Below are positions 1,807 to 60,513 of a DNA stretch of 64,000 nt, one piece after another (position 1 is the first letter of the stretch; every line of letters begins with the position of its first letter). The notes beneath the pieces were generated by a model. It saw only the letters and a list, made by a program, of their open reading frames with translations, made no database searches and was not told the origin of the DNA. The stretch lies in NCBI RefSeq assembly GCF_006345805.1, contig NC_043006.1, positions 104,160,001 through 104,224,000 on the forward strand, read 5' to 3'. The DNA comes from Octopus sinensis (lineage: Eukaryota). Position numbers and translations under genes: made by a program.

Positions 1807-2337
1807 ATATAGTGTATATTTAAACACTTAGAGAATCCACTTATAGGGATCCTAACGCATTAGAAAGAACAGCTAAGTTCTACGACCACAAAAAAGAATT
1901 CGGGATAAAATTCGACAGGAATAAATTTGGAAATGAAAAACATTTACCATCCAGTTTCCTGGACCAATTGGTGTCTAATAATCTTTTAGCGAGTCATGGG
2001 GAAATCACAAGGTTTGATTTTCTTCAGCAGTAAAATTGAACGTTTTTTATTGTAATTAAATTCCATTTCCCTTTGATATGACTATATATATATATTATAT
2101 ATTATATATATATCTATATATATTACATATATATATATGTATGTACATATATATATATGTATGTACATATAATATATATATGTATATATAATATAAATAT
2201 AAGAGAGTGGTCACTATATGGCTCACTCTAGCACCAGTTAATCCAAAAGGTTTCAACCACGAAAATACATGTTTCCCATGAAAGTCAGTACGATTGTTAG
2301 CTCACACGGACAGGGCAAATAAAAAATAACAAAAATA

Positions 2338-2434
2338 CAGATTATTTTGGGACAATTGTTTCGCTATTAATGAATTAAATGTAATTTTACTTACAAAAAA
2401 AATCCATTGGTAGCTCGTCAGCCAAAACTATCTG
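2338..2434 (-). ncRNA. Type I hammerhead ribozyme, family A copy 1
   Basis: Minus strand: cagatagUUUUGG-CUGACGA-GCUA...UAGC-GAAA-C-AAUU-GUC^CCAAAAuaaucug. Full core, stems I and II, palindromic stem III (CAAUUG). Confidence 0.88.
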
Positions 2435-2863
2435 GATGAAATCCACTCAATCACACGCCAGATTTTACCATAACGATAAATACGCGTGTGGTTCAATTGA
2501 TTACATCCGACGTTATAATTCAAATGCCCCAACTAACAGCGCGCCAAACTTTCACGGAAAACAAATACAGCATTTAGAAATAAATGCAGCATAATTATAA
2601 TTAATTAATAAGGGTGAGAGAATTAGACACTAATTTAATAGTATATCTATTCAACACCAAGTGGCCTAGTGCTCCGAGAAACCTGGATTATTATAATATT
2701 TTTACAAAATAAATATAAGAGAGTGGTCACTATATGGCTCACTCTAGCACCAGTAATCCAAAAGGTTTCACCACGAAAATACATGTTTCCATGAATCAGT
2801 ACATGTTTCACCCATGAAAGTCAGTACGATGCTCAAAAAAAAAAAAAAAAAAAAAAAAAAAAA

Positions 2864-2959
2864 CAGATTATTTTGGACAATTGTTTCGCTATTAATAAAT
2901 TAAATGTAATTTTACTTACAAAAAAAATCCATTTGTAGCTCGTCAGCCAAAACTATCTG
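2864..2959 (-). ncRNA. Type I hammerhead ribozyme, family A copy 2
   Basis: Same core as copy 1. One base is missing at the stem I/cleavage junction, possibly a read error. Confidence 0.75.
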
Positions 2960-3397
2960 GATGAAATCCACTCAATCACACGCCAGATTTTACCATAACG
3001 ATAAATACGCGTGTGGTTCAATTGATTACATCCGACGTTATAATTCAAATGCCCCAACTAACAGCGCGCCAAACTTTCACGGAAAACAAATACAGCATTT
3101 AGAAATAAATGCAGCATAATTATAATTAATTAATAAGGGTGAGAGAATTAGATACTAATTTAATAGTATATCTATTCAACACCAAGTGGCCTAGTGTCCG
3201 AGAAACCTGGATTATTATAATATTTTATAACATATTATAATATTTTTACAAAATAAATATAAGAGAGTGGTCACTATATGGCTCACTCTAGCACCAGTTA
3301 ATCCAAAAGGTTTCAACCACGAAAATACATGTTTCCCATGAAAGTCAGTACGATTGTTAGCTCACACGGACAGGGCAAATAAAAAATAACAAAAATA

Positions 3398-3492
3398 CAG
3401 ATTATTTTGGGACAATTGTTTCGCTATTAATGAATAAATGTAATTTTACTTACAAAAAAAATCCTTGGTAGCTCGTCAGCCAAAACTATCTG
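3398..3492 (-). ncRNA. Type I hammerhead ribozyme, family A copy 3
   Basis: Same core and stems as copy 1. Confidence 0.85.
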
Positions 3493-4250
3493 GATTAAAC
3501 CACTCAATCACCGCCAGATTTTACCATAACGATAAAAACGCGTGGGTTCAATTGAGTTACATCCGACGTTATAATTCAATGCCCCAACTAACAGCGCGCC
3601 AAACTTTCACGGAAAACAAATACAGCATTTAGAAATAAATGCAGCATAAGAATTATAATAATTAAAAGGGTGAGGAATTAGATACTATTTAATAGTATAT
3701 CTATTCACACCAAGTGGCCTAGTGCTCCACCAGAAACCTGGATTATTATAATATTTTTACAAAATAAATATAAGAGAAGTGTTCACTATAATGGCTCACT
3801 CTAGCACCAGTTTTAATCCCAAAGGTTTCAAAACCACGAAAATACAGAGTTTCCCATGAAAGTCAGTACGAATTGTTAGCTCCCGGACAGTGTCAAATAA
3901 TTAAATAACAAAAATACAGATATTTTGGGACAATTGTTTCGCTCTCTTATATTTATTTTGTAAAAATATTATAATATGTTATAAAATATTATAATAATCC
4001 AGGTTTCTCGGAGCACTAGGCCACTTGGTGTTGAATAGATATACTATTAAATTAGTATCTAATTCTCTCACCCTTATTAATTATTTATAATTATGCTGCA
4101 TTTATTTCTAAATGCTGTATTTGTTTTCCGTGAAAGTTTGGCGCGCTGTTGGTTGGGGCATTTGAATTACAACGTCGGATGTAATCAATTGAACCACACG
4201 CGTATTTATCGTTATGGTAAAATCTGGCGTGTGATTGAGTGGATTTCATC

Positions 4251-4347
4251 CAGATAGTTTTGGCTGACGAGCTACAAATGGATTTTTTTTGTAAGTAAAA
4301 TTACATTTAATTCATTAATAGCGAAACAATTGTCCCAAAATAATCTG
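4251..4347 (+). ncRNA. Type I hammerhead ribozyme, family A inverted copy
   Basis: CTGACGA 4264-4270, GCTA/TAGC stem II, GAAA 4323-4326, GTC 4332-4334, stem I TTTTGG/CCAAAA extended by CAGAT/ATCTG. Confidence 0.9.
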
Positions 4348-4620
4348 TATTTTTGTTATTTTTTATTTGCCCTGTCCGTGTGAGCTAACAATCGTACTGA
4401 CTTTCATGGGAACATGTATTTTCGTGGTTGAAACCTTTTGGATTAACTGGTGCTAGAGTGAGCCATATAGTGACCACTCTCTTATATTTATTTTGTAAAA
4501 ATATTATAATATGTTATAAAATATTATAATAATCCAGGTTTCTCGGAGCACTAGGCCACTTGGTGTTGAATAGATTACTATTAAATTAGTATCTAATTCT
4601 CTCACCCTTATTAATTAATT

Positions 4621-4738
4621 ATGTATGTATATATATATATATGTATGTATATATATATATATATGTATGTATATATAATATATAATATATGTATGTATAT
4701 ATATATATATATATGTATGTATATATATATATATATAT

Positions 4739-32535: not shown

Positions 32536-32675
32536 GTGTGCGCGTGTGCATATGCGTTTATGTGTCTGTGTGTATTTGCGTGTATGTGCACTGATGTCTT
32601 ACATGAGCACCAGGAAATTCAGTGGGATTCGAACTTAGAATGTACACAACCAGTGCAACTACTGCTGCTCTTGCC

Positions 32676-32810
<135 letters not shown>

Positions 32811-32839
32811 GATATCAACTGAAAATTCTCTGGAGAAAT

Positions 32840-34380
32840 AATGAAAGCAAAATGTTGCGAGTAGATAAAGGATGAGAATGATGAGGAGGAGAGTGATGCA
32901 GCAAAAATGCCCGAAGCAGCGAGGAATTTTTGGGGGTCAGACATTTGGGTAAGTGAGTTTAACATAACAGGGAAGCAGATTGGTTTCAGAAATTTAAAAG
33001 GAGAAATGGAAAATAGATCAGAATTAGAAAATATAAATATTCCAGACGACGAAGTGAAAGCCAGAAGTAAGACAAGAAAGCATGGAGTCTCAGAACGGAC
33101 ATTTGAAGACCCTGGTAAGGCATTGGGTTCTTAAGAGGGTTAAAGAATTTTACCTTTTTGACATAAAAAAACGTGGTTATTTTTTGAAAAGTAGAATTAT
33201 TTATATTCAAAACTAGAAGAGTGAAATATTAAATTAAATTACTAGGAAATATGAAGATATGGAGGGGGATATTTTCAGGGAGACTCGTTCTCTCCATTAC
33301 TTGTCTTCATTGTGTTGATCCCTTTGTAAACATACTGAGAAAATCCGGAATTGTCTGTCGACCTCTGACCTTTCCAGCATCAGGGATAAGGTAATTATCT
33401 GTAGTATACGGATGACCCCAAATTATAAATGCGAATAAAATGTCTTGGATTCTCTGCTCTACACGGTAATAATATTTGTGAAGGATATTGATATGTTGTG
33501 TGTGGTATATAAGTGTGCAGTTGTAATTATTAAGAGAGGTCGAAAAGTTTAATCTGTTGGTATAAAGCTACCACAAGATGTTATCATTACATTGCTGAAT
33601 AGAATAGGTAACATACAAGTAGAGGGGTTTGCTGCAGGACGATAATGTAATAGAAAGAGAAATGAGAGAGAAAATCTCCAAAGAGTATAAGAAAAAGATT
33701 AGAAAGGTGGTCGAAATTGAGAAAATATCAATTACACAGGCAGGAGCTTTGTCGTTGTTTGTTCCTGCTCGAGCCACGCCTGGCACATAAAGAACGGTTT
33801 CCCAGTTTCCTTGGCGTATAGGTTCCCCACCTGGACGGGAAGCCGGTCCGTCTCAGGTGAGCTGCAAGATGCAGGAGGAAAGAGAGAGAGAAAGGTGTGG
33901 CGGAAGAGTCAGCAGAAGTTCGCCATTACCTTCTGCCGGAGCCGCGTGGAGCTTAGGTGTTTCGCTCATAAACACACACATCGCCCGGTCTGAGATTCGA
34001 ACCCCCCACGATCCCTCGACCGCGAGTCCGCTGCTCTAACCACTAGGCCATGTGCCTCCACAACACACACAGGTAGGAGGTCATTCGATTGCTGAGATAA
34101 TTCTAAGCCACATGAAATGGATATAACAAAACGGCTGCTCACAATGCATAAGACACTCCGCTTTGAAAGTAATATCGACAGACTCTAATTCCCAAGAAGA
34201 GGAGGAGACAGAGATTTATAGCAGAGATGTGTGACAGATATTTGTAGAATGTAGAAACTACCATTAGTTCTTCGACCTGGAGCATGAATAACTATGTTGT
34301 ACATATATGCGGTTTGAAATATCGAAGTAGTCGCTGAAACAGTGAGAGAATTCCTGATAAGAAAGAACGACAAGAAAAAT
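32840..34380 (+). pseudogene. Highly decayed R4/Dong-like RT remnant, interrupted by a SINE
   Basis: IFQGDSFSPLL (~33268), NYL*YTDD (~33395), and after the SINE LLTMHKTL..ESNIDRL*FPRRGG (LY.PR..GGRGL-like). Confidence 0.7.
33790..34060 (-). mobile_element. tRNA-derived SINE, head GGAGGCACATGGCCTAGTGG, type 3-like tail
   Basis: Minus-strand A/B boxes. Tail GACGGACCGGCTTCCCGTCCAGG. Confidence 0.8.
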
Positions 34381-34970: not shown

Positions 34971-35192
34971 TTTAATCAATTTAGGGTAGCAAAAAATTCA
35001 GTAAAAATTTATCGCTACCAGCGGCCTAATGGAAAAGAGAAAATAGTCAAAGACTAAATATGTATAAATATAACAATTTAGGAATGGCCTGAACAGGCCA
35101 TTCGTCCACCAGAAAGAGCAGCCATAACTCCAACCGCCAAGTAGTGTAATTCGGAAATAAGGTGAAAATTTAAAAACATTTACCCTAATTCA

Positions 35193-35293
35193 TCTTTTAT
35201 ACGATGCATCGTTTCGGTGTCTTTAATGATAGACCAGCTTAATTAAATTAAATTAAGCTGGTCTACCATAGGTCACACTTCATCAGTAAAAGA
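35193..35293 (-). ncRNA. Type I hammerhead ribozyme, family B copy 1
   Basis: Minus strand: UCUUUUA-CUGAUGA-aGUGU...long hairpin...ACACc-GAAA-CGAUGCAUCG-UA^UAAAAGA. 7-bp stem I and palindromic stem III. Confidence 0.9.
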
Positions 35294-35666
35294 AACCTGG
35301 GAGAGACGGATATACACGAGGCTACTGTATCAATGCCTCGGGAATATCTGTCTTAAAATTTTCAAGACCAACGCATTCGCGCCAAACTTATCGGCAGCAA
35401 ATATAAACTGCCGATTCAATCTCAGAATTAGTCAGAAAATTATCATTAATCAATTTAGGGTAGCAAAAAATTCAGTAAAAATTTATCGCTACCAGCGGCC
35501 TAATGGAAAAGAGAAAATAGTCAAAGACTAAATATGTATAAATATAACAATTTAGGAATGGCCTGAACAGGCCATTCGTCCACCAGAAAGAGCAGCCATA
35601 ACTCCAACCGCCAAGTAGTGTAATTCGGAAATAAGGTGAAAATTTAAAAACATTTACCCTAATTCA

Positions 35667-35767
35667 TATTTTATACGATGCATCGTTTCGGTGTCTTTAA
35701 TGATAGACCAGCTTAATTAAATTAAATTAAGCTGGTCTACCATAGGTCACACTTCATCAGTAAAAGA
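35667..35767 (-). ncRNA. Type I hammerhead ribozyme, family B copy 2
   Basis: Same as copy 1 with one stem I substitution. The cleavage site is 474 nt from copy 1. Confidence 0.88.
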
Positions 35768-36012
35768 AACCTGGGAGAGACGGATATACACGAGGCTACT
35801 GTATCAATGCCTCGGGAATATCTGTCTTAAAATTTTCAAGACCAACGCATTCGCGCCAAACTTATCGGCAGCAAATATAAACTGCCGATTCAATCTCAGA
35901 ATTAGTCAGAAAATTATCAATTAATCAATTTAGGGTAGCAAAAAATTGGCGGTTGGAGTTATGGCTGCTCTTTCTGGTGGACGAATGGCCTGTTCAGGCC
36001 ATTCCTAAATTG

Positions 36013-36054
<42 letters not shown>

Positions 36055-38521: not shown

Positions 38522-38932
38522 GGCGAGCTGGCAGAAACGATGACACGACGGACGAAATGCTTAGCGGTATTTCGTCTGCCGCTACGTTCTGAGTTCAAAT
38601 TCCGCCGAGGTTGACTTTGCCTTTCGTCCTTTCGGGGTAGATTAAATAAGTACCAGTCACGCACTGGGGTCGATGTAATCGACTTAATCCGTTTGTGTGT
38701 CCTTGTTTGTCCCCTCTGTGTTTAGCCCCTTGTCGGTAGTAAAGAAATAGGTATTTCGTCTGCCGCTACGTCCTGAGTTCAAATATCGACAAGGTCGACT
38801 TTGTCTTTCATCCTTTTGGGGTAGATTAAATAAGTACCAGTTACGCACTGGGGTCGATGTAATCGACTTAATCCGTTTGTCTGTCTTTGTTTGTCCTCTC
38901 TGTGTTTAGCCCCTTGTGGGTAGTAAAGAAAT
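38522..38932 (+). mobile_element. Meta-like SINE: head plus 2 tandem bodies
   Basis: Internal junction AAAGAAATAG|GTATTTCG at ~38750. 20-bp TSD AGGTATAGGAATCCC(A/T)TCAT at 38502-38521 and 38933-38952. Confidence 0.9.
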
Positions 38933-39218
38933 AGGTATAGGAATCCCTTCATTGTACCAGTTATCTAAGGAGTTTCACTGTTCGTAATTGTATATCTTGT
39001 ATTTAAAATTCATTTTCATATTATTCTACACTGAAATACAAATACGTTTCCATAAAAGCAAAAATAAGAATTAAAACCATTGCGTCTCTCTTGTACGTGT
39101 TGGCCTGCGAATGTTTGTGTCGTGTGAACCTGATTTAAACGTGTTGCATGCCGTGGTTGTTAAATGCTAAAGAATATAATCCTTCTGGTTGTTTCCAATA
39201 TAGGTTTTATCTTACAAT

Positions 39219-47579: not shown

Positions 47580-48184
47580 GTTTGAACGCAAAAGGTAGCG
47601 GCAGACGAAATACCTATTTCTTTATTGCCCACAAGGGGATAAACACAGAGGGGACAAACAAGGACAGACAAGCGGATTAAGTCTATTATATCGACCCCAG
47701 TGCGTAACTGGTACTTATTTGATCGACCCCGAAAGGGTGACAAGCAAAGTCGACCTCGGCGGAATTTGAACTCAGAACGTAACGGCAGACAAAATATCTA
47801 CAAGAGGCTAAACACAGAGAGGACAAACAAGGACAGACAAACGGATTAAGTCTATTATATCGACCCCAGTGCGTAATTGGTACTTATTTGATCGACCCCG
47901 AAAGGATGAAAGGCAAAGTCGACCTCGGCGGAATTTGAACTCAGAACGTAACGGCAGACAAAATATCTACAAGGGGCTAAACACAGAGAGGACAAACAAG
48001 GACAGACAAACGGATTAAGTCTATTATATCGACCCCAGTGCGTAACTGGTACTTATTTAAACAACCCCGAAAGGATGAAAGGCAAAGTCGACCTCGGTGG
48101 AATTTGAACCCAGAACGTAGCGGCAGACGAAATACGGCTACGCATTTCGCCCGGCGTGCTAACGTTTCTGCCAGCTCGCCGCTT
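47580..48184 (-). mobile_element. Meta-like SINE: head plus ~3.2 tandem bodies
   Basis: Head at 48184. Two internal junctions share the same deletion (CAGACAAAATATCTACAAG) and one has the full junction (47605-47625). Confidence 0.88.
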
Positions 48185-49429: not shown

Positions 49430-50338
49430 CGCGAATGGGCCCCAACTATGCGAACCTGTTCGTTGGCTATGTTGAGGCCAAATATTCTCTAATTTCACTG
49501 GTCCCACTCCTGAACTATATGGTCGTTATATTGACGACATTATCGGTGCCAACTCACTCTCCGCGAACATCTAGATTCCTTCCTCTCTTTCGTCCAATCT
49601 TTCCATCCAGCCCTCCACTTCACTTCCACTATCTCCAACACCTCTGTCTCCTTCCTGACATTTCAGTTAGCATTCTTCACTCCACTCTTACCACCTCCAT
49701 TCACTACAAACACACAGACTCACACTCATACCTCAACTTCTCTTCCTCCCACCCAGAACACACCAAACTTTCCATCCCCTATTCCAATTCCTCCGTCTAC
49801 GTAGGCTCTGTAGTGACGACCATGACTTTGAGACTCAGTCTCAACGTATGACTCACCACTTCACCCTACGTGGATACCCCCTCACCACTATCCACACCGC
49901 CCTTGCCAGAGCACGGTCCGTGGACCGTGTATCTGCTCTCTCTCCCCGAACCCGCCCTGTAGTCTCCCGCCTCCCTTTTCCCTCACGTACCACCCACGAC
50001 CTACGTCTCCAACGCACCATTCTTCGAGCTTTCATCATCTCAGTCCGACCGTCCACTTCAACACTCTTCCCTAACCGACCCCTCCCCTCTTTCAACGAGC
50101 CCACAACCTTCGAGACCTTTTGGTCACTAGCTCTTCCCTGACCCTACCTCCCACCGGCTCGTTCCCCTGTTCCCGCCCACGTTGCCGCACTTGCCCTTAC
50201 CTCTCCAACACCACCCCGCCTCACTAGCACCAACCATAGACCTATCCCATCCTCACTCCTTCACCTGCACCTCCAGCAATATTATCTATTGCATCTCTTG
50301 CTCTCTCTGCAATTCCTTGTACACATCGGACAAACGGG
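49430..50338 (+). pseudogene. Penelope-like element (Neptune-like) RT plus GIY-YIG endonuclease remnant
   Basis: [37 protein letters not shown], Cys linker FPCSRPRCRTCPY and FTCTSSNIIYCISCSLC. Many frameshifts. Starts at (TA)n and is cut by the gap. Confidence 0.9.
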
Positions 50339-57968: not shown

Positions 57969-58000
<32 letters not shown>

Positions 58001-58160
58001 CATATATATATATCGTGTTGCATATTTGCCATTTGAATATGGCTAACCCATAAGGGTGGATGCTACTGTAGTTTGTAGCCCCAGGAAGATATCTCCTCCA
58101 GTTGGCTATAGACACACTATCTGTGTCCTGTCAGTATTTGTGAAGGGGAGTCATCCTCCC

Positions 58161-58241
58161 CGTCTTCAACACATGATACACACGTACCCGAGTTTCAAGG
58201 TGTTTACCTTTCATCAGCGTGTGACAATCATGGTGTCGACG
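58161..58241 (-). ncRNA. Type I hammerhead ribozyme, family C copy 1
   Basis: Minus strand: CACACG-CUGAUGA-AAGGU-AAAC-ACCUU-GAAA-C-UCGG-GUA^CGUGUG. Stem I is extended by CAUGAU/AUCAUG. Confidence 0.92.
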
Positions 58242-58513
58242 AGAAGTCAGATCCCTTCACAAATACATATACTTTTTCCAGTGTCGATTTGACACTGATA
58301 ATGAAAAAAGTGAAATCAAACAATGATAAATCTCAGAGCGAGTTATAAACAGTAGCGGTAACACTTCGTGTTGCATATTTGCCATTTGAATATGGCTAAC
58401 CCATAAGGGTGGATGCTACTGTAGTTTGTAGCCCCAGGAAGATATCTCCTCCAGTTGGCTATAGACACACTATCTGTGTCCTGTTAGTATTTGTGAAGGG
58501 GAGTCATCCTCCC

Positions 58514-58595
58514 CGTCTTCAACACATGATACACACGTACCCGAGTTTCAAGGTGTTTACCTTTCATCAGCGTGTGACAATCATGGTTGTCGACG
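58514..58595 (-). ncRNA. Type I hammerhead ribozyme, family C copy 2
   Basis: Identical core. The cleavage site is 353 nt from copy 1. Confidence 0.92.
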
Positions 58596-58766
58596 AGAAG
58601 TCAGATCCAACTAACCAGTTGTCTATAGCCAACTGGGGGAGATATCTTCCTGGGGCCACAAACTACAGTAGCATCCACCCTTATGGGTTAGCCATATTCA
58701 AATGGCAAATATGCAACACGAAGTGTTACCGCTACTGTTTATAACTCGCTCTGAGATTTATCATTG

Positions 58767-58814
<48 letters not shown>

Positions 58815-58901
58815 TACATATATATAACTTTCTTCCTATTTCAGCAGTCGTCCTCCTGTGCTAACCCACCTTTAATAATTTACTTCATATATATATATAT
58901 A

Positions 58902-59745
58902 CTAGCAGAATTGCCCGGCGTTGCTCGGGGCTGAATTGCTTGAAAGTACTGTTAATGATTGCACTGAATTATGATGATTATTCAGGTAAATATTGATATA
59001 AGTTTACGTTGGGAGATAAGGACTTAACGATCAAACGTGTGCCATTGCATTGTTTTGTGGGAACCAAATTTCTGATGAGCATTATAGGGGCACCAACTTT
59101 AAGTTTGAGAATGTGTGGTGGTAGTCCGGGGTGCTCAAAGGAATTGAGTACCTCTATTGGATAGTTGATGACGTCCTCTGGGTCAGGAGTTGTATCGATA
59201 GACTGATATACATAGACTTCCCCAGGAATGAGGTTTAGCATTTCATCATTACTATGGTGAACAGTTTTATTCCTCGGGGCCTGTATAGCCTTTTGGCCAA
59301 TCCAATCCATATTCTGATAATTAGCTTGTAGATCTTGGAACACTGCATCTCTGAGATCAGAAGGCGTCTTAACAATGGTACAAATGGAATCGATGGCAAT
59401 ATTACCATTTTCATCCCCTGGTAATTTGCCTTCGCCAAGTGCAAGGAGGGTGTGAGGAAATGCTGCTGATGTGATATTACGTCGCATATGAGCACGCATA
59501 TTGGTGTGAAGTTTGAGAGTTACTTCCCTTTATTAAAAAAATATGCATTAAAATGGGAAAAAATGATGGTAAATTATTTGTAAAATCGTAGACTCATCGT
59601 AGACGCGCGCTAATACCCAGAAGGGCTCGATATGAATCACGACTATAAGATACTCGGTTTTGGTTAAACTGCATCGCAAAATGTGGGAGTAGTTAGGAAT
59701 CTAAATCGGAGTAGACAGACACAATCTTTCTTTTATATATAAAGA
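58902..59745 (-). mobile_element. Internally deleted Helitron with PIF1-like helicase fragment
   Basis: The minus strand starts A|TC (59745) and ends with hairpin CCCGAGCAACGCCGGG plus CTAG|T (58902). ORF 58978-59499 contains LPPHILKLKVGAPIMLIRNL and CNGTRLIV. Confidence 0.9.
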
Positions 59746-60266
59746 TTTTCGTCCTAAAAAACTTTGTATGGAGTGAATGGTTACCTCTATGGAAATATAT
59801 ACACACACATTATACATACATGTGTGTATAGATGAATATGTAAATACATTTAAATATCTATATACACTTTTGGGCGATCTTTCTGCTTCTTAGAGATAAC
59901 TTTAGATCTTATTTTCGTCCTAAAAACTTTGTATGGAGTGAATGGTTAGCTCTATGGAAATATATACACACACGTTATACATACATGTGTGCATAGATGA
60001 ATATATAAATACATTTATATATCTATATACACTTTTGGGCGATCTTTCTGCTTCTTAGAGATAACTTTAGATCTTATTTTCGTCCTAAAAAACTTTGTGC
60101 GGAGTGAATGGTTACCTCTATGGAAATATATACACATACATTATACATACATGTTTGTATAGATGAATATATAAATACATTTAAATATCTATATACACTT
60201 TTGGGCGATCTTTCTGCTACTTGTATATACTTTAGATCTTATATTCGTCCTAAATAACTTTGTATG
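59746..60266. repeat. Tandem repeat, ~165-bp unit x3.1
   Basis: Units start at 59746, 59912, 60077 and 60242 (TTTTCGTCCTAAAAAACTTTGTATGG). Confidence 0.92.
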
Positions 60267-60513
60267 AATTGAAAAGAAAATGAATTGAAATTTTTAAGAA
60301 AGGAATTTGTTTACATACATGTGTCAAATGGCAAATGTTTGTGCAGTTGTCCGAAATGGAACCAGGGTAAATGTGTGGAACTGATGTATTATAATGAATA
60401 GTCCTTCTTGTTGTGAATATTAATTTAATTAATATGAACTGAAAACCAGTGGTGTAGCATAGGTGATCTTCTTCTAGCAAAAAGGATAACCAGTCTGAAT
60501 GGGTCATCCCTGT

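Follow-up and report, generated by a model that had tools for sequence, protein, structure and literature searches.

The tandem repeat that we call family C is likely a non-LTR retrozyme whose transcripts would cut themselves as a double hammerhead and close into a circle, and which was likely inserted by the enzyme of a Penelope-like element (PLE). A PLE-type mode of insertion appears well supported, and both cleavage and a circular RNA are predicted. By itself family C adds a further family to a class already known: animal retrozymes have already been described, their dependence on PLEs was proposed in 2020 and this proposal gained support from phylogeny in 2026. What is new here is the structural footprint of that link, preserved in a single copy within a 64-kb window (the whole stretch of DNA analysed).

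The element lies between two (TA)n target tracts, at 57985..58013 on the left and 58769..58826 on the right (located in the sequence and in the tandem-repeat list), and runs in the order of direct units (595 nt), an 11-nt filler and a 149-nt inverted arm. Sequence comparison defines the direct part (58014..58608, minus strand) as 1.7 head-to-tail units that span both hammerhead cut sites; the monomer between the two predicted cuts is 353 nt long (58185..58537, minus strand), and between the repeats there is no unique interior beyond the rest of the unit. At the head-to-head junction the sequence shows the filler (58609..58619, unstranded), part of which we infer to have been copied by fold-back from the adjacent stem. 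The arm beyond it (58620..58768, plus strand, by sequence comparison) is a 5'-truncated copy without a hammerhead; apart from 2 differences, it equals 58319-58467 in reverse complement. Both outer ends of the element are 3' ends in the RNA sense. That of the direct part is 58014, equivalent to 58367 in the unit, while the inverted arm ends at unit position 58319, so that the two lie 48 nt apart. The stretch between these two element ends, a 48-nt 'tail' (58319..58366, minus strand), is carried by the inverted end only, where its copy occupies 58721-58768. The (TA)n target shows no clear TSD. A sequence-only reading of this locus had taken the interval 58013..58768 as near-identical units, of which the direct repeat stands, although it amounts to ~1.7 units and the last 149 nt are an inverted copy. 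It is the features absent from that reading, namely the inverted arm, the 48-nt tail and the (TA)n target, that carry the mechanistic information.

The copies within the element are closely similar. The direct repeat (58013-58254 against 58366-58608) differs by one substitution and one 1-nt indel, and across all three segments there are 4 differences in 391 compared positions, which may reflect age, reverse transcription error or assembly error. The idea that the insertion is recent is plausible, but the segments are not free of differences. All three segments also have in common five letters that differ from the majority of the public contigs described below. These shared letters are consistent with a single source template; a different dominant subfamily in the genome would look alike.

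Each hammerhead is of type I and lies on the minus strand. Motif scan and folding place one at 58532..58576, with stem I at 58576-58571/58537-58532, the core at 58570-58564, stem II at 58563-58550, a self-complementary helix III at 58546-58539 and a predicted cut after 58538; an identical second lies at 58179..58223, with its predicted cut after 58185. Consistent with the earlier description, the motif scan recovered a 6-bp stem I, a 5-bp stem II and GUA sites 353 nt apart, with the A at 58538 and 58185. A strict scan of the window gave five hammerhead matches, two of them in family C, whereas none of 100 block shuffles gave any. Rfam 15 returned nothing at the gathering threshold for the 64-kb window, and at E<=10 gave 14 weak matches, mostly on TA tracts and none of them a hammerhead. 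Applied to metagenome contigs, the hammerhead pattern found four chance matches, all of them in GC-rich DNA that lacks stems I/II and has no other similarity, and in viral contigs it found 0. Helix III comprises 2 bp around a four-base loop, with all eight bases self-complementary. In folding, its probability in the monomer is 0.0, and its segment forms a self-dimer (-8.9 kcal/mol) and no monomer hairpin; a dimer of two cores reaches -30.9 kcal/mol compared to -13.7 kcal/mol for one core.

The monomer has a GC content of 42% and the longest ATG ORF on the circle is 42 aa, while a 114-aa open frame at 58400 had no Pfam match. On the minus strand its MFE is -127.3 kcal/mol when linear and -122.3 kcal/mol when circular, corresponding to z scores of -8.2 and -7.8 against 100 dinucleotide shuffles (-5.1 and -6.0 for the plus strand), with 63% of the bases predicted to be paired. 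The suggestion of a highly paired RNA therefore held, at a z of about -8, as did the 14-bp arms at 58134-58147 and 58253-58266, which are present in the sequence. The arm at 58253-58266 (the 5' arm on the minus strand, from sequence and folding) has two possible partners, 58487-58500, which would close the monomer or circle, and 58134-58147, which would close the second hammerhead. Two further hairpins had been proposed: CAGTGTC..GACACTG has a pairing probability of 1.0 in the circle, but GGGGAG..CTCCCC, although present as sequence, has one of 0.0 because it competes with long helices.

By every feature testable here, the assignment of family C to the non-LTR retrozymes is well supported. The class has a short tandem unit (~150-450 bp), a GC content below 50%, no coding capacity and no LTR-type layout, and family C has all of these. 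Hammerheads of the retrozyme type are described as having a helix I of 6 bp, a helix II of ~4 bp and a helix III of 1-2 bp with a palindromic loop (PMC4209133), and the weak self-complementary helix III of family C matches the canonical metazoan arrangement given there. Retrozymes of the mussel Mytilus galloprovincialis are 350-390 bp long and form circles, and the axolotl carries Rtz_353 (Cervera and de la Pena 2020, PMC7229834). Metazoan non-LTR retrozymes as published have in common with family C a short, low-GC tandem unit with one type I hammerhead and no ORF, a highly paired monomer, a weak dimer-type helix III and co-existence with PLEs. The likeness to the retrozymes of PMC7229834 is one of features, not of sequence comparison, and their circles have been shown whereas that of family C is predicted. 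Most of those circles are predicted to have a free hammerhead, in contrast to the self-locked circle predicted for family C, and the main text of that paper describes no inverted arm, tail or microsatellite target, all three of which family C has. Thus the earlier proposal of a circular retrozyme RNA fits in size, tandem layout, type I geometry, lack of an ORF and strong folding, with the circle itself a prediction.

We used folding to predict where cleavage would be permitted; these are nearest-neighbour predictions, which ignore loop-loop and tertiary contacts. A minus-strand transcript of 58600-58150 has the double hammerhead as its MFE structure (-170.4 compared to -156.2 for two forced monomeric hammerheads), 14 kcal/mol below two monomeric ribozymes and with a probability of ~0.69. 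With the 5' end at 58608, the double hammerhead exceeds a probability of 0.5 at only 7 of 13 transcript lengths, and for the full direct part (58608-58014) its probability falls to 0.02, with both cores locked. If the folding is a fair guide, this length dependence suggests a co-transcriptional window for cleavage. In the circle, the core CUGA is predicted to pair with the helix III loop (P 0.96), and forcing the active form costs 5.6 kcal/mol. Such a predicted on/off switch, with the dimer active and the circle locked, would be cheap to test at the bench. The locus had been put forward as the best experimental candidate of the window, and the 58600-58150 construct bears this out; transcripts that read through and include the inverted arm do not, having a double hammerhead probability of 0.0 at 13 of 13 lengths as a 149-bp duplex dominates. 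Since the inverted arm abolishes the predicted double hammerhead, this locus would, if read through, probably be a poor source of circles, whatever the rest of the family does.

The way in which family C sits in the genome points to PLEs. Insertions of PLEs are described as partial tandems with an inverted, 5'-truncated copy, a tail of 30-40 bp and a bias towards (TA)n (PMC8557442), and a PLE protein has been shown to cut and extend both strands from two internal reverse-transcription start sites that define the tail (PMC11167929). Partial tandem and inverted 5'-truncated copy are both present at family C. Compared with Neptune, Naiad and Poseidon as published (PMC8557442, PMC11167929, PMC4209133), it also has the same (TA)n target without a clear TSD and dimer-type type I hammerhead, but it lacks an RT-GIY-YIG ORF, has a canonical rather than a minimal hammerhead, and its putative one-end tail is 48 nt rather than 30-40. 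That family C might itself be an autonomous PLE was rejected, as it has no ORF and tblastn with four PLE proteins gave no match at the locus. A further parallel is offered by the non-autonomous PLEs of the Chlamys type, such as MRC1 (PMC8557442), which are likewise non-coding, head-to-tail and PLE-mobilised; Chlamys elements, however, are found in green algae and, like Naiad, are reported mostly without canonical hammerheads, whereas that of family C is canonical. Xenopus retrozymes have been related to PLE terminal repeats (pLTRs) by Li, Clavereau and Pollet (bioRxiv 2026.07.22.740005). That work argues from co-occurrence and sequence phylogeny, mostly in vertebrates, whereas family C contributes insertion anatomy and not sequence kinship with a PLE, and the text of the preprint describes neither a tail nor a target site. 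A literature search, with subscription papers mostly outside its reach and Repbase and Dfam outside it too, found no paper that describes an inverted arm and a tail on a retrozyme. As a separate observation, the predicted fold has a small, AC-rich hairpin (58362-58374) whose loop contains the main 3' end, 58367, much as has been reported for the start site of the anole PLE; the majority variants of the public contigs weaken this hairpin.

A possible source of the enzyme is found 8 kb away. At 49432..50338 (plus strand) tblastn and homologs reveal a broken, frameshifted, 5'-truncated PLE ORF that retains the end of the RT, the thumb/HTH and the start of GIY-YIG. It begins directly after a TA tract and ends in a 100-N gap, which is followed by another TA tract. 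Four homologs match by tblastn with E values down to 1e-30, with HTH_animal look-alikes; RT and GIY-YIG occur together in three of the ten homolog matches, and the named homologs (2 of 10) are from a snail. The homologs have a cysteine linker of the Neptune/Nematis type, while Pfam recognised no family in any of the three pieces. We regard this remnant as a candidate Neptune-type partner. It shows that EN+ PLE enzymes existed in this genome and does not link this enzyme to family C: within the window, nothing in the sequence was found to connect family C with an autonomous PLE, and the 3' end of the remnant is lost in the N gap.

On these grounds the proposed course of events would be as follows. 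In an RNA of two units, the helix III segments, being self-complementary, are predicted to pair from one unit to the other and both sites to be cut, and in the resulting monomer or circle the pairing of CUGA with the helix III loop would lock the ribozyme. A host ligase of the RtcB type, by analogy with mussel and axolotl retrozymes, would close the circle. A PLE RT-endonuclease would then nick both strands of the (TA)n tract and prime two cDNAs at internal sites 48 nt apart, one running 595 nt through both cut sites and the other 149 nt, after which the cDNA ends would be joined head-to-head with short filler. Read through from its right flank, the present copy is predicted to give a 149-bp hairpin RNA and no circle. 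A bolder version can be put forward only tentatively, and we think it less likely than not: that family C records retrozyme movement by a dimeric PLE enzyme which primed both TA-tract strands at two fixed sites 48 nt apart on a 353-nt RNA circle, on one of the strands rolled on across the ribozyme junction, and joined the cDNAs head-to-head, with the CUGA-helix III loop lock restricting cleavage to multimers. If true, this would settle both the identity of the enzyme that moves retrozymes and the means by which their circles escape cutting themselves. The significance of this copy is that it presents a PLE insertion footprint on a retrozyme with a canonical hammerhead. Two candidate start sites for reverse transcription are thereby named, and trans-mobilisation could be tested directly in the in vitro assay published for the anole PLE.

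Because the 595-nt arm extends over both cut sites, the template was either a circle or an uncut multimer, and the data favour neither. Another way to view family C is as a PLE-mobilised, non-autonomous repeat copied from an uncut linear multimer, with a hammerhead that rarely cleaves and circles that play no part in its spread. This explains the 595-nt arm equally well, and there is precedent: the anole PLE inserts from unprocessed RNA, its hammerhead cleavage is not needed for insertion and the ribozyme needs protein (PMC11167929), and eight of nine Xenopus retrozyme dimers were reported as uncleaved in vitro (bioRxiv 2026.07.22.740005). The long family C transcript, too, is predicted to be locked. 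We nevertheless think it unlikely, as the core bases are invariant among the listed variants and the fold is conserved, and helices I and II have the canonical sizes seen in the circle-forming retrozymes of coral, mussel and axolotl (PMC7229834).

The evidence on variants comes from public contigs, for which four of 24 listed sequencing runs, from four studies, were compared with one monomer (58255-58608). Two of the runs (X2 and X7) are guessed to be DNA and two (X11 and X16) RNA; all consist of assembled contigs, which are blind to ends, strand and circles. The two DNA-guessed runs gave 3222 and 2635 matching contigs, with different flanks and many variants, and in each of these two the share of contigs that continue into dissimilar sequence is 0; the head-to-tail joint was found in 4 of 4 runs. 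Family C is thus a dispersed, multi-copy, many-variant family that closes head-to-tail. We collected 29 variant letters at a share of ~10% or more in X2 or X7, with five of 34 rows, prominent only in X11/X16, excluded. Placed on the minus-strand fold, 21 are unpaired, five keep a pair and three break one, where the null mean is 9.0 (P 0.002); as a control, the plus-strand fold has nine pair-breaking variants against a null of 15.1 (P 0.009). With the control behaving alike, this deficit is a signal of structure and speaks only weakly for the strand; the variant sites are also not independent events. Of the four variants within the hammerhead, two letters are at 10.1 and the others at N7 and in loop II, so that every invariant core base is spared. 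A-to-I editing was considered as a source of the variants, with A>G changes in the RNA sense at nine to ten variable places, and was set aside because several of these are private to the window copy.

The same contigs bear on the ends of the element. Loose ends with AT-rich letters mark the 58367 end in 35 contigs of X2, 34 of X7 and 8 of X16, with a mixed consensus (agreement 0.56-0.68). In X16 a single contig joins a TA tract at 58319 and possibly represents this very locus as carried by another individual. Both ends of the 48-nt extension thus recur, that at 58367 with a mixed consensus and that at 58319 in a single contig. Three opposite-strand joints were found, at other places. A 266-nt X11 contig bridges a cut site and the head-to-tail joint; being assembled, it is not evidence of expression or of a circle. 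Contig depth peaks at 58387-58446, where loose ends reveal diverged relatives whose letters have changed while the local hairpins are retained, and this may be a protein-recognition region common to other subfamilies or to an autonomous PLE.

That peak is also what would be expected if family C were only the pLTR of a 5'-truncated autonomous PLE, since the divergent loose ends imply that this part alone is common to related elements. The footprint is the same as that of PLEs, and truncated PLEs are known to have dual hammerheads, one on each strand, in their vicinity (PMC4209133). We nevertheless judge this quite improbable: in 4 of 4 runs the unit joins itself without an intervening ORF (although short contigs break at repeats and may thus miss an attached one), the 42-aa maximum and the empty tblastn search leave no trace of a PLE protein at the locus, and the hammerhead is canonical and not of the minimal PLE type (PMC4209133, PMC7761336).

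The layout of family C is not unique to it, as all three of the hammerhead repeat families in the window have tandem and inverted copies set in TA tracts. Family A (~2190-4622, in TA/TATG tracts) has a unit of ~530 nt, with three direct units and an inverted part of 1.3 units that has a hammerhead of its own (4334, plus strand); its inversion junction lies inside a hammerhead at 3943, its helix III is palindromic, its loop II long and its end offset ~130 nt. Indels and a poly(A) run in family A suggest assembly noise. Family B (34972-36016, between TA tracts) has a 474-nt unit in two copies that are 99.6% identical, followed by an inverted end of ~70-86 nt, with a 12-nt perfectly palindromic helix III, a long hairpin in helix II and an end offset of ~95 nt; a short AT-rich motif, much alike on the two sides, stands at the start of each end. 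Neither family has detectable similarity to family C. An origin of family C as a satellite amplified at the DNA level, or as an assembly fold-back artefact, is scarcely credible: the family A irregularities do resemble assembly noise and tandem growth by unequal crossover has been proposed for retrozymes (bioRxiv 2026.07.22.740005), yet the inverted arm, as we read it, continues into unit-internal sequence and does not mirror the left flank, both ends fall exactly at TA tracts, the layout is repeated in three unrelated families (A-C and B-C without significant pairwise similarity), and other runs have opposite-strand joints and a TA-flanked end at 58319.

The window as a whole, with a repeat landscape like that of a cephalopod, is rich in microsatellites (141 tandem-repeat rows) and contains LINE, Helitron-like and mariner-like remnants (Pfam RVT_1, Pif1_2B and Transposase_1). 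A scan for bacterial promoters gave four matches where 2.3 were expected and was set aside as irrelevant to an animal genome. A dispersed repeat family occurs at 742-1293, 38566-38938, 47631-48134 and other places, and also in the form of tandem arrays with a repeat of 169-184 bp; no hammerhead motif was found in it. A Pif1 helicase fragment, Helitron-like, lies at 58978-59529 (minus strand), 200 bp from the family C element, and is adjoined by a 165-bp tandem repeat (59745-60273) in which the scans found no hammerhead motif. Finally, 32607-33134 (plus strand), which encodes a long run of Asp/Glu, may be an exon of a host gene. If this exon is real and the element intronic, the hammerhead strand would be antisense to that gene.
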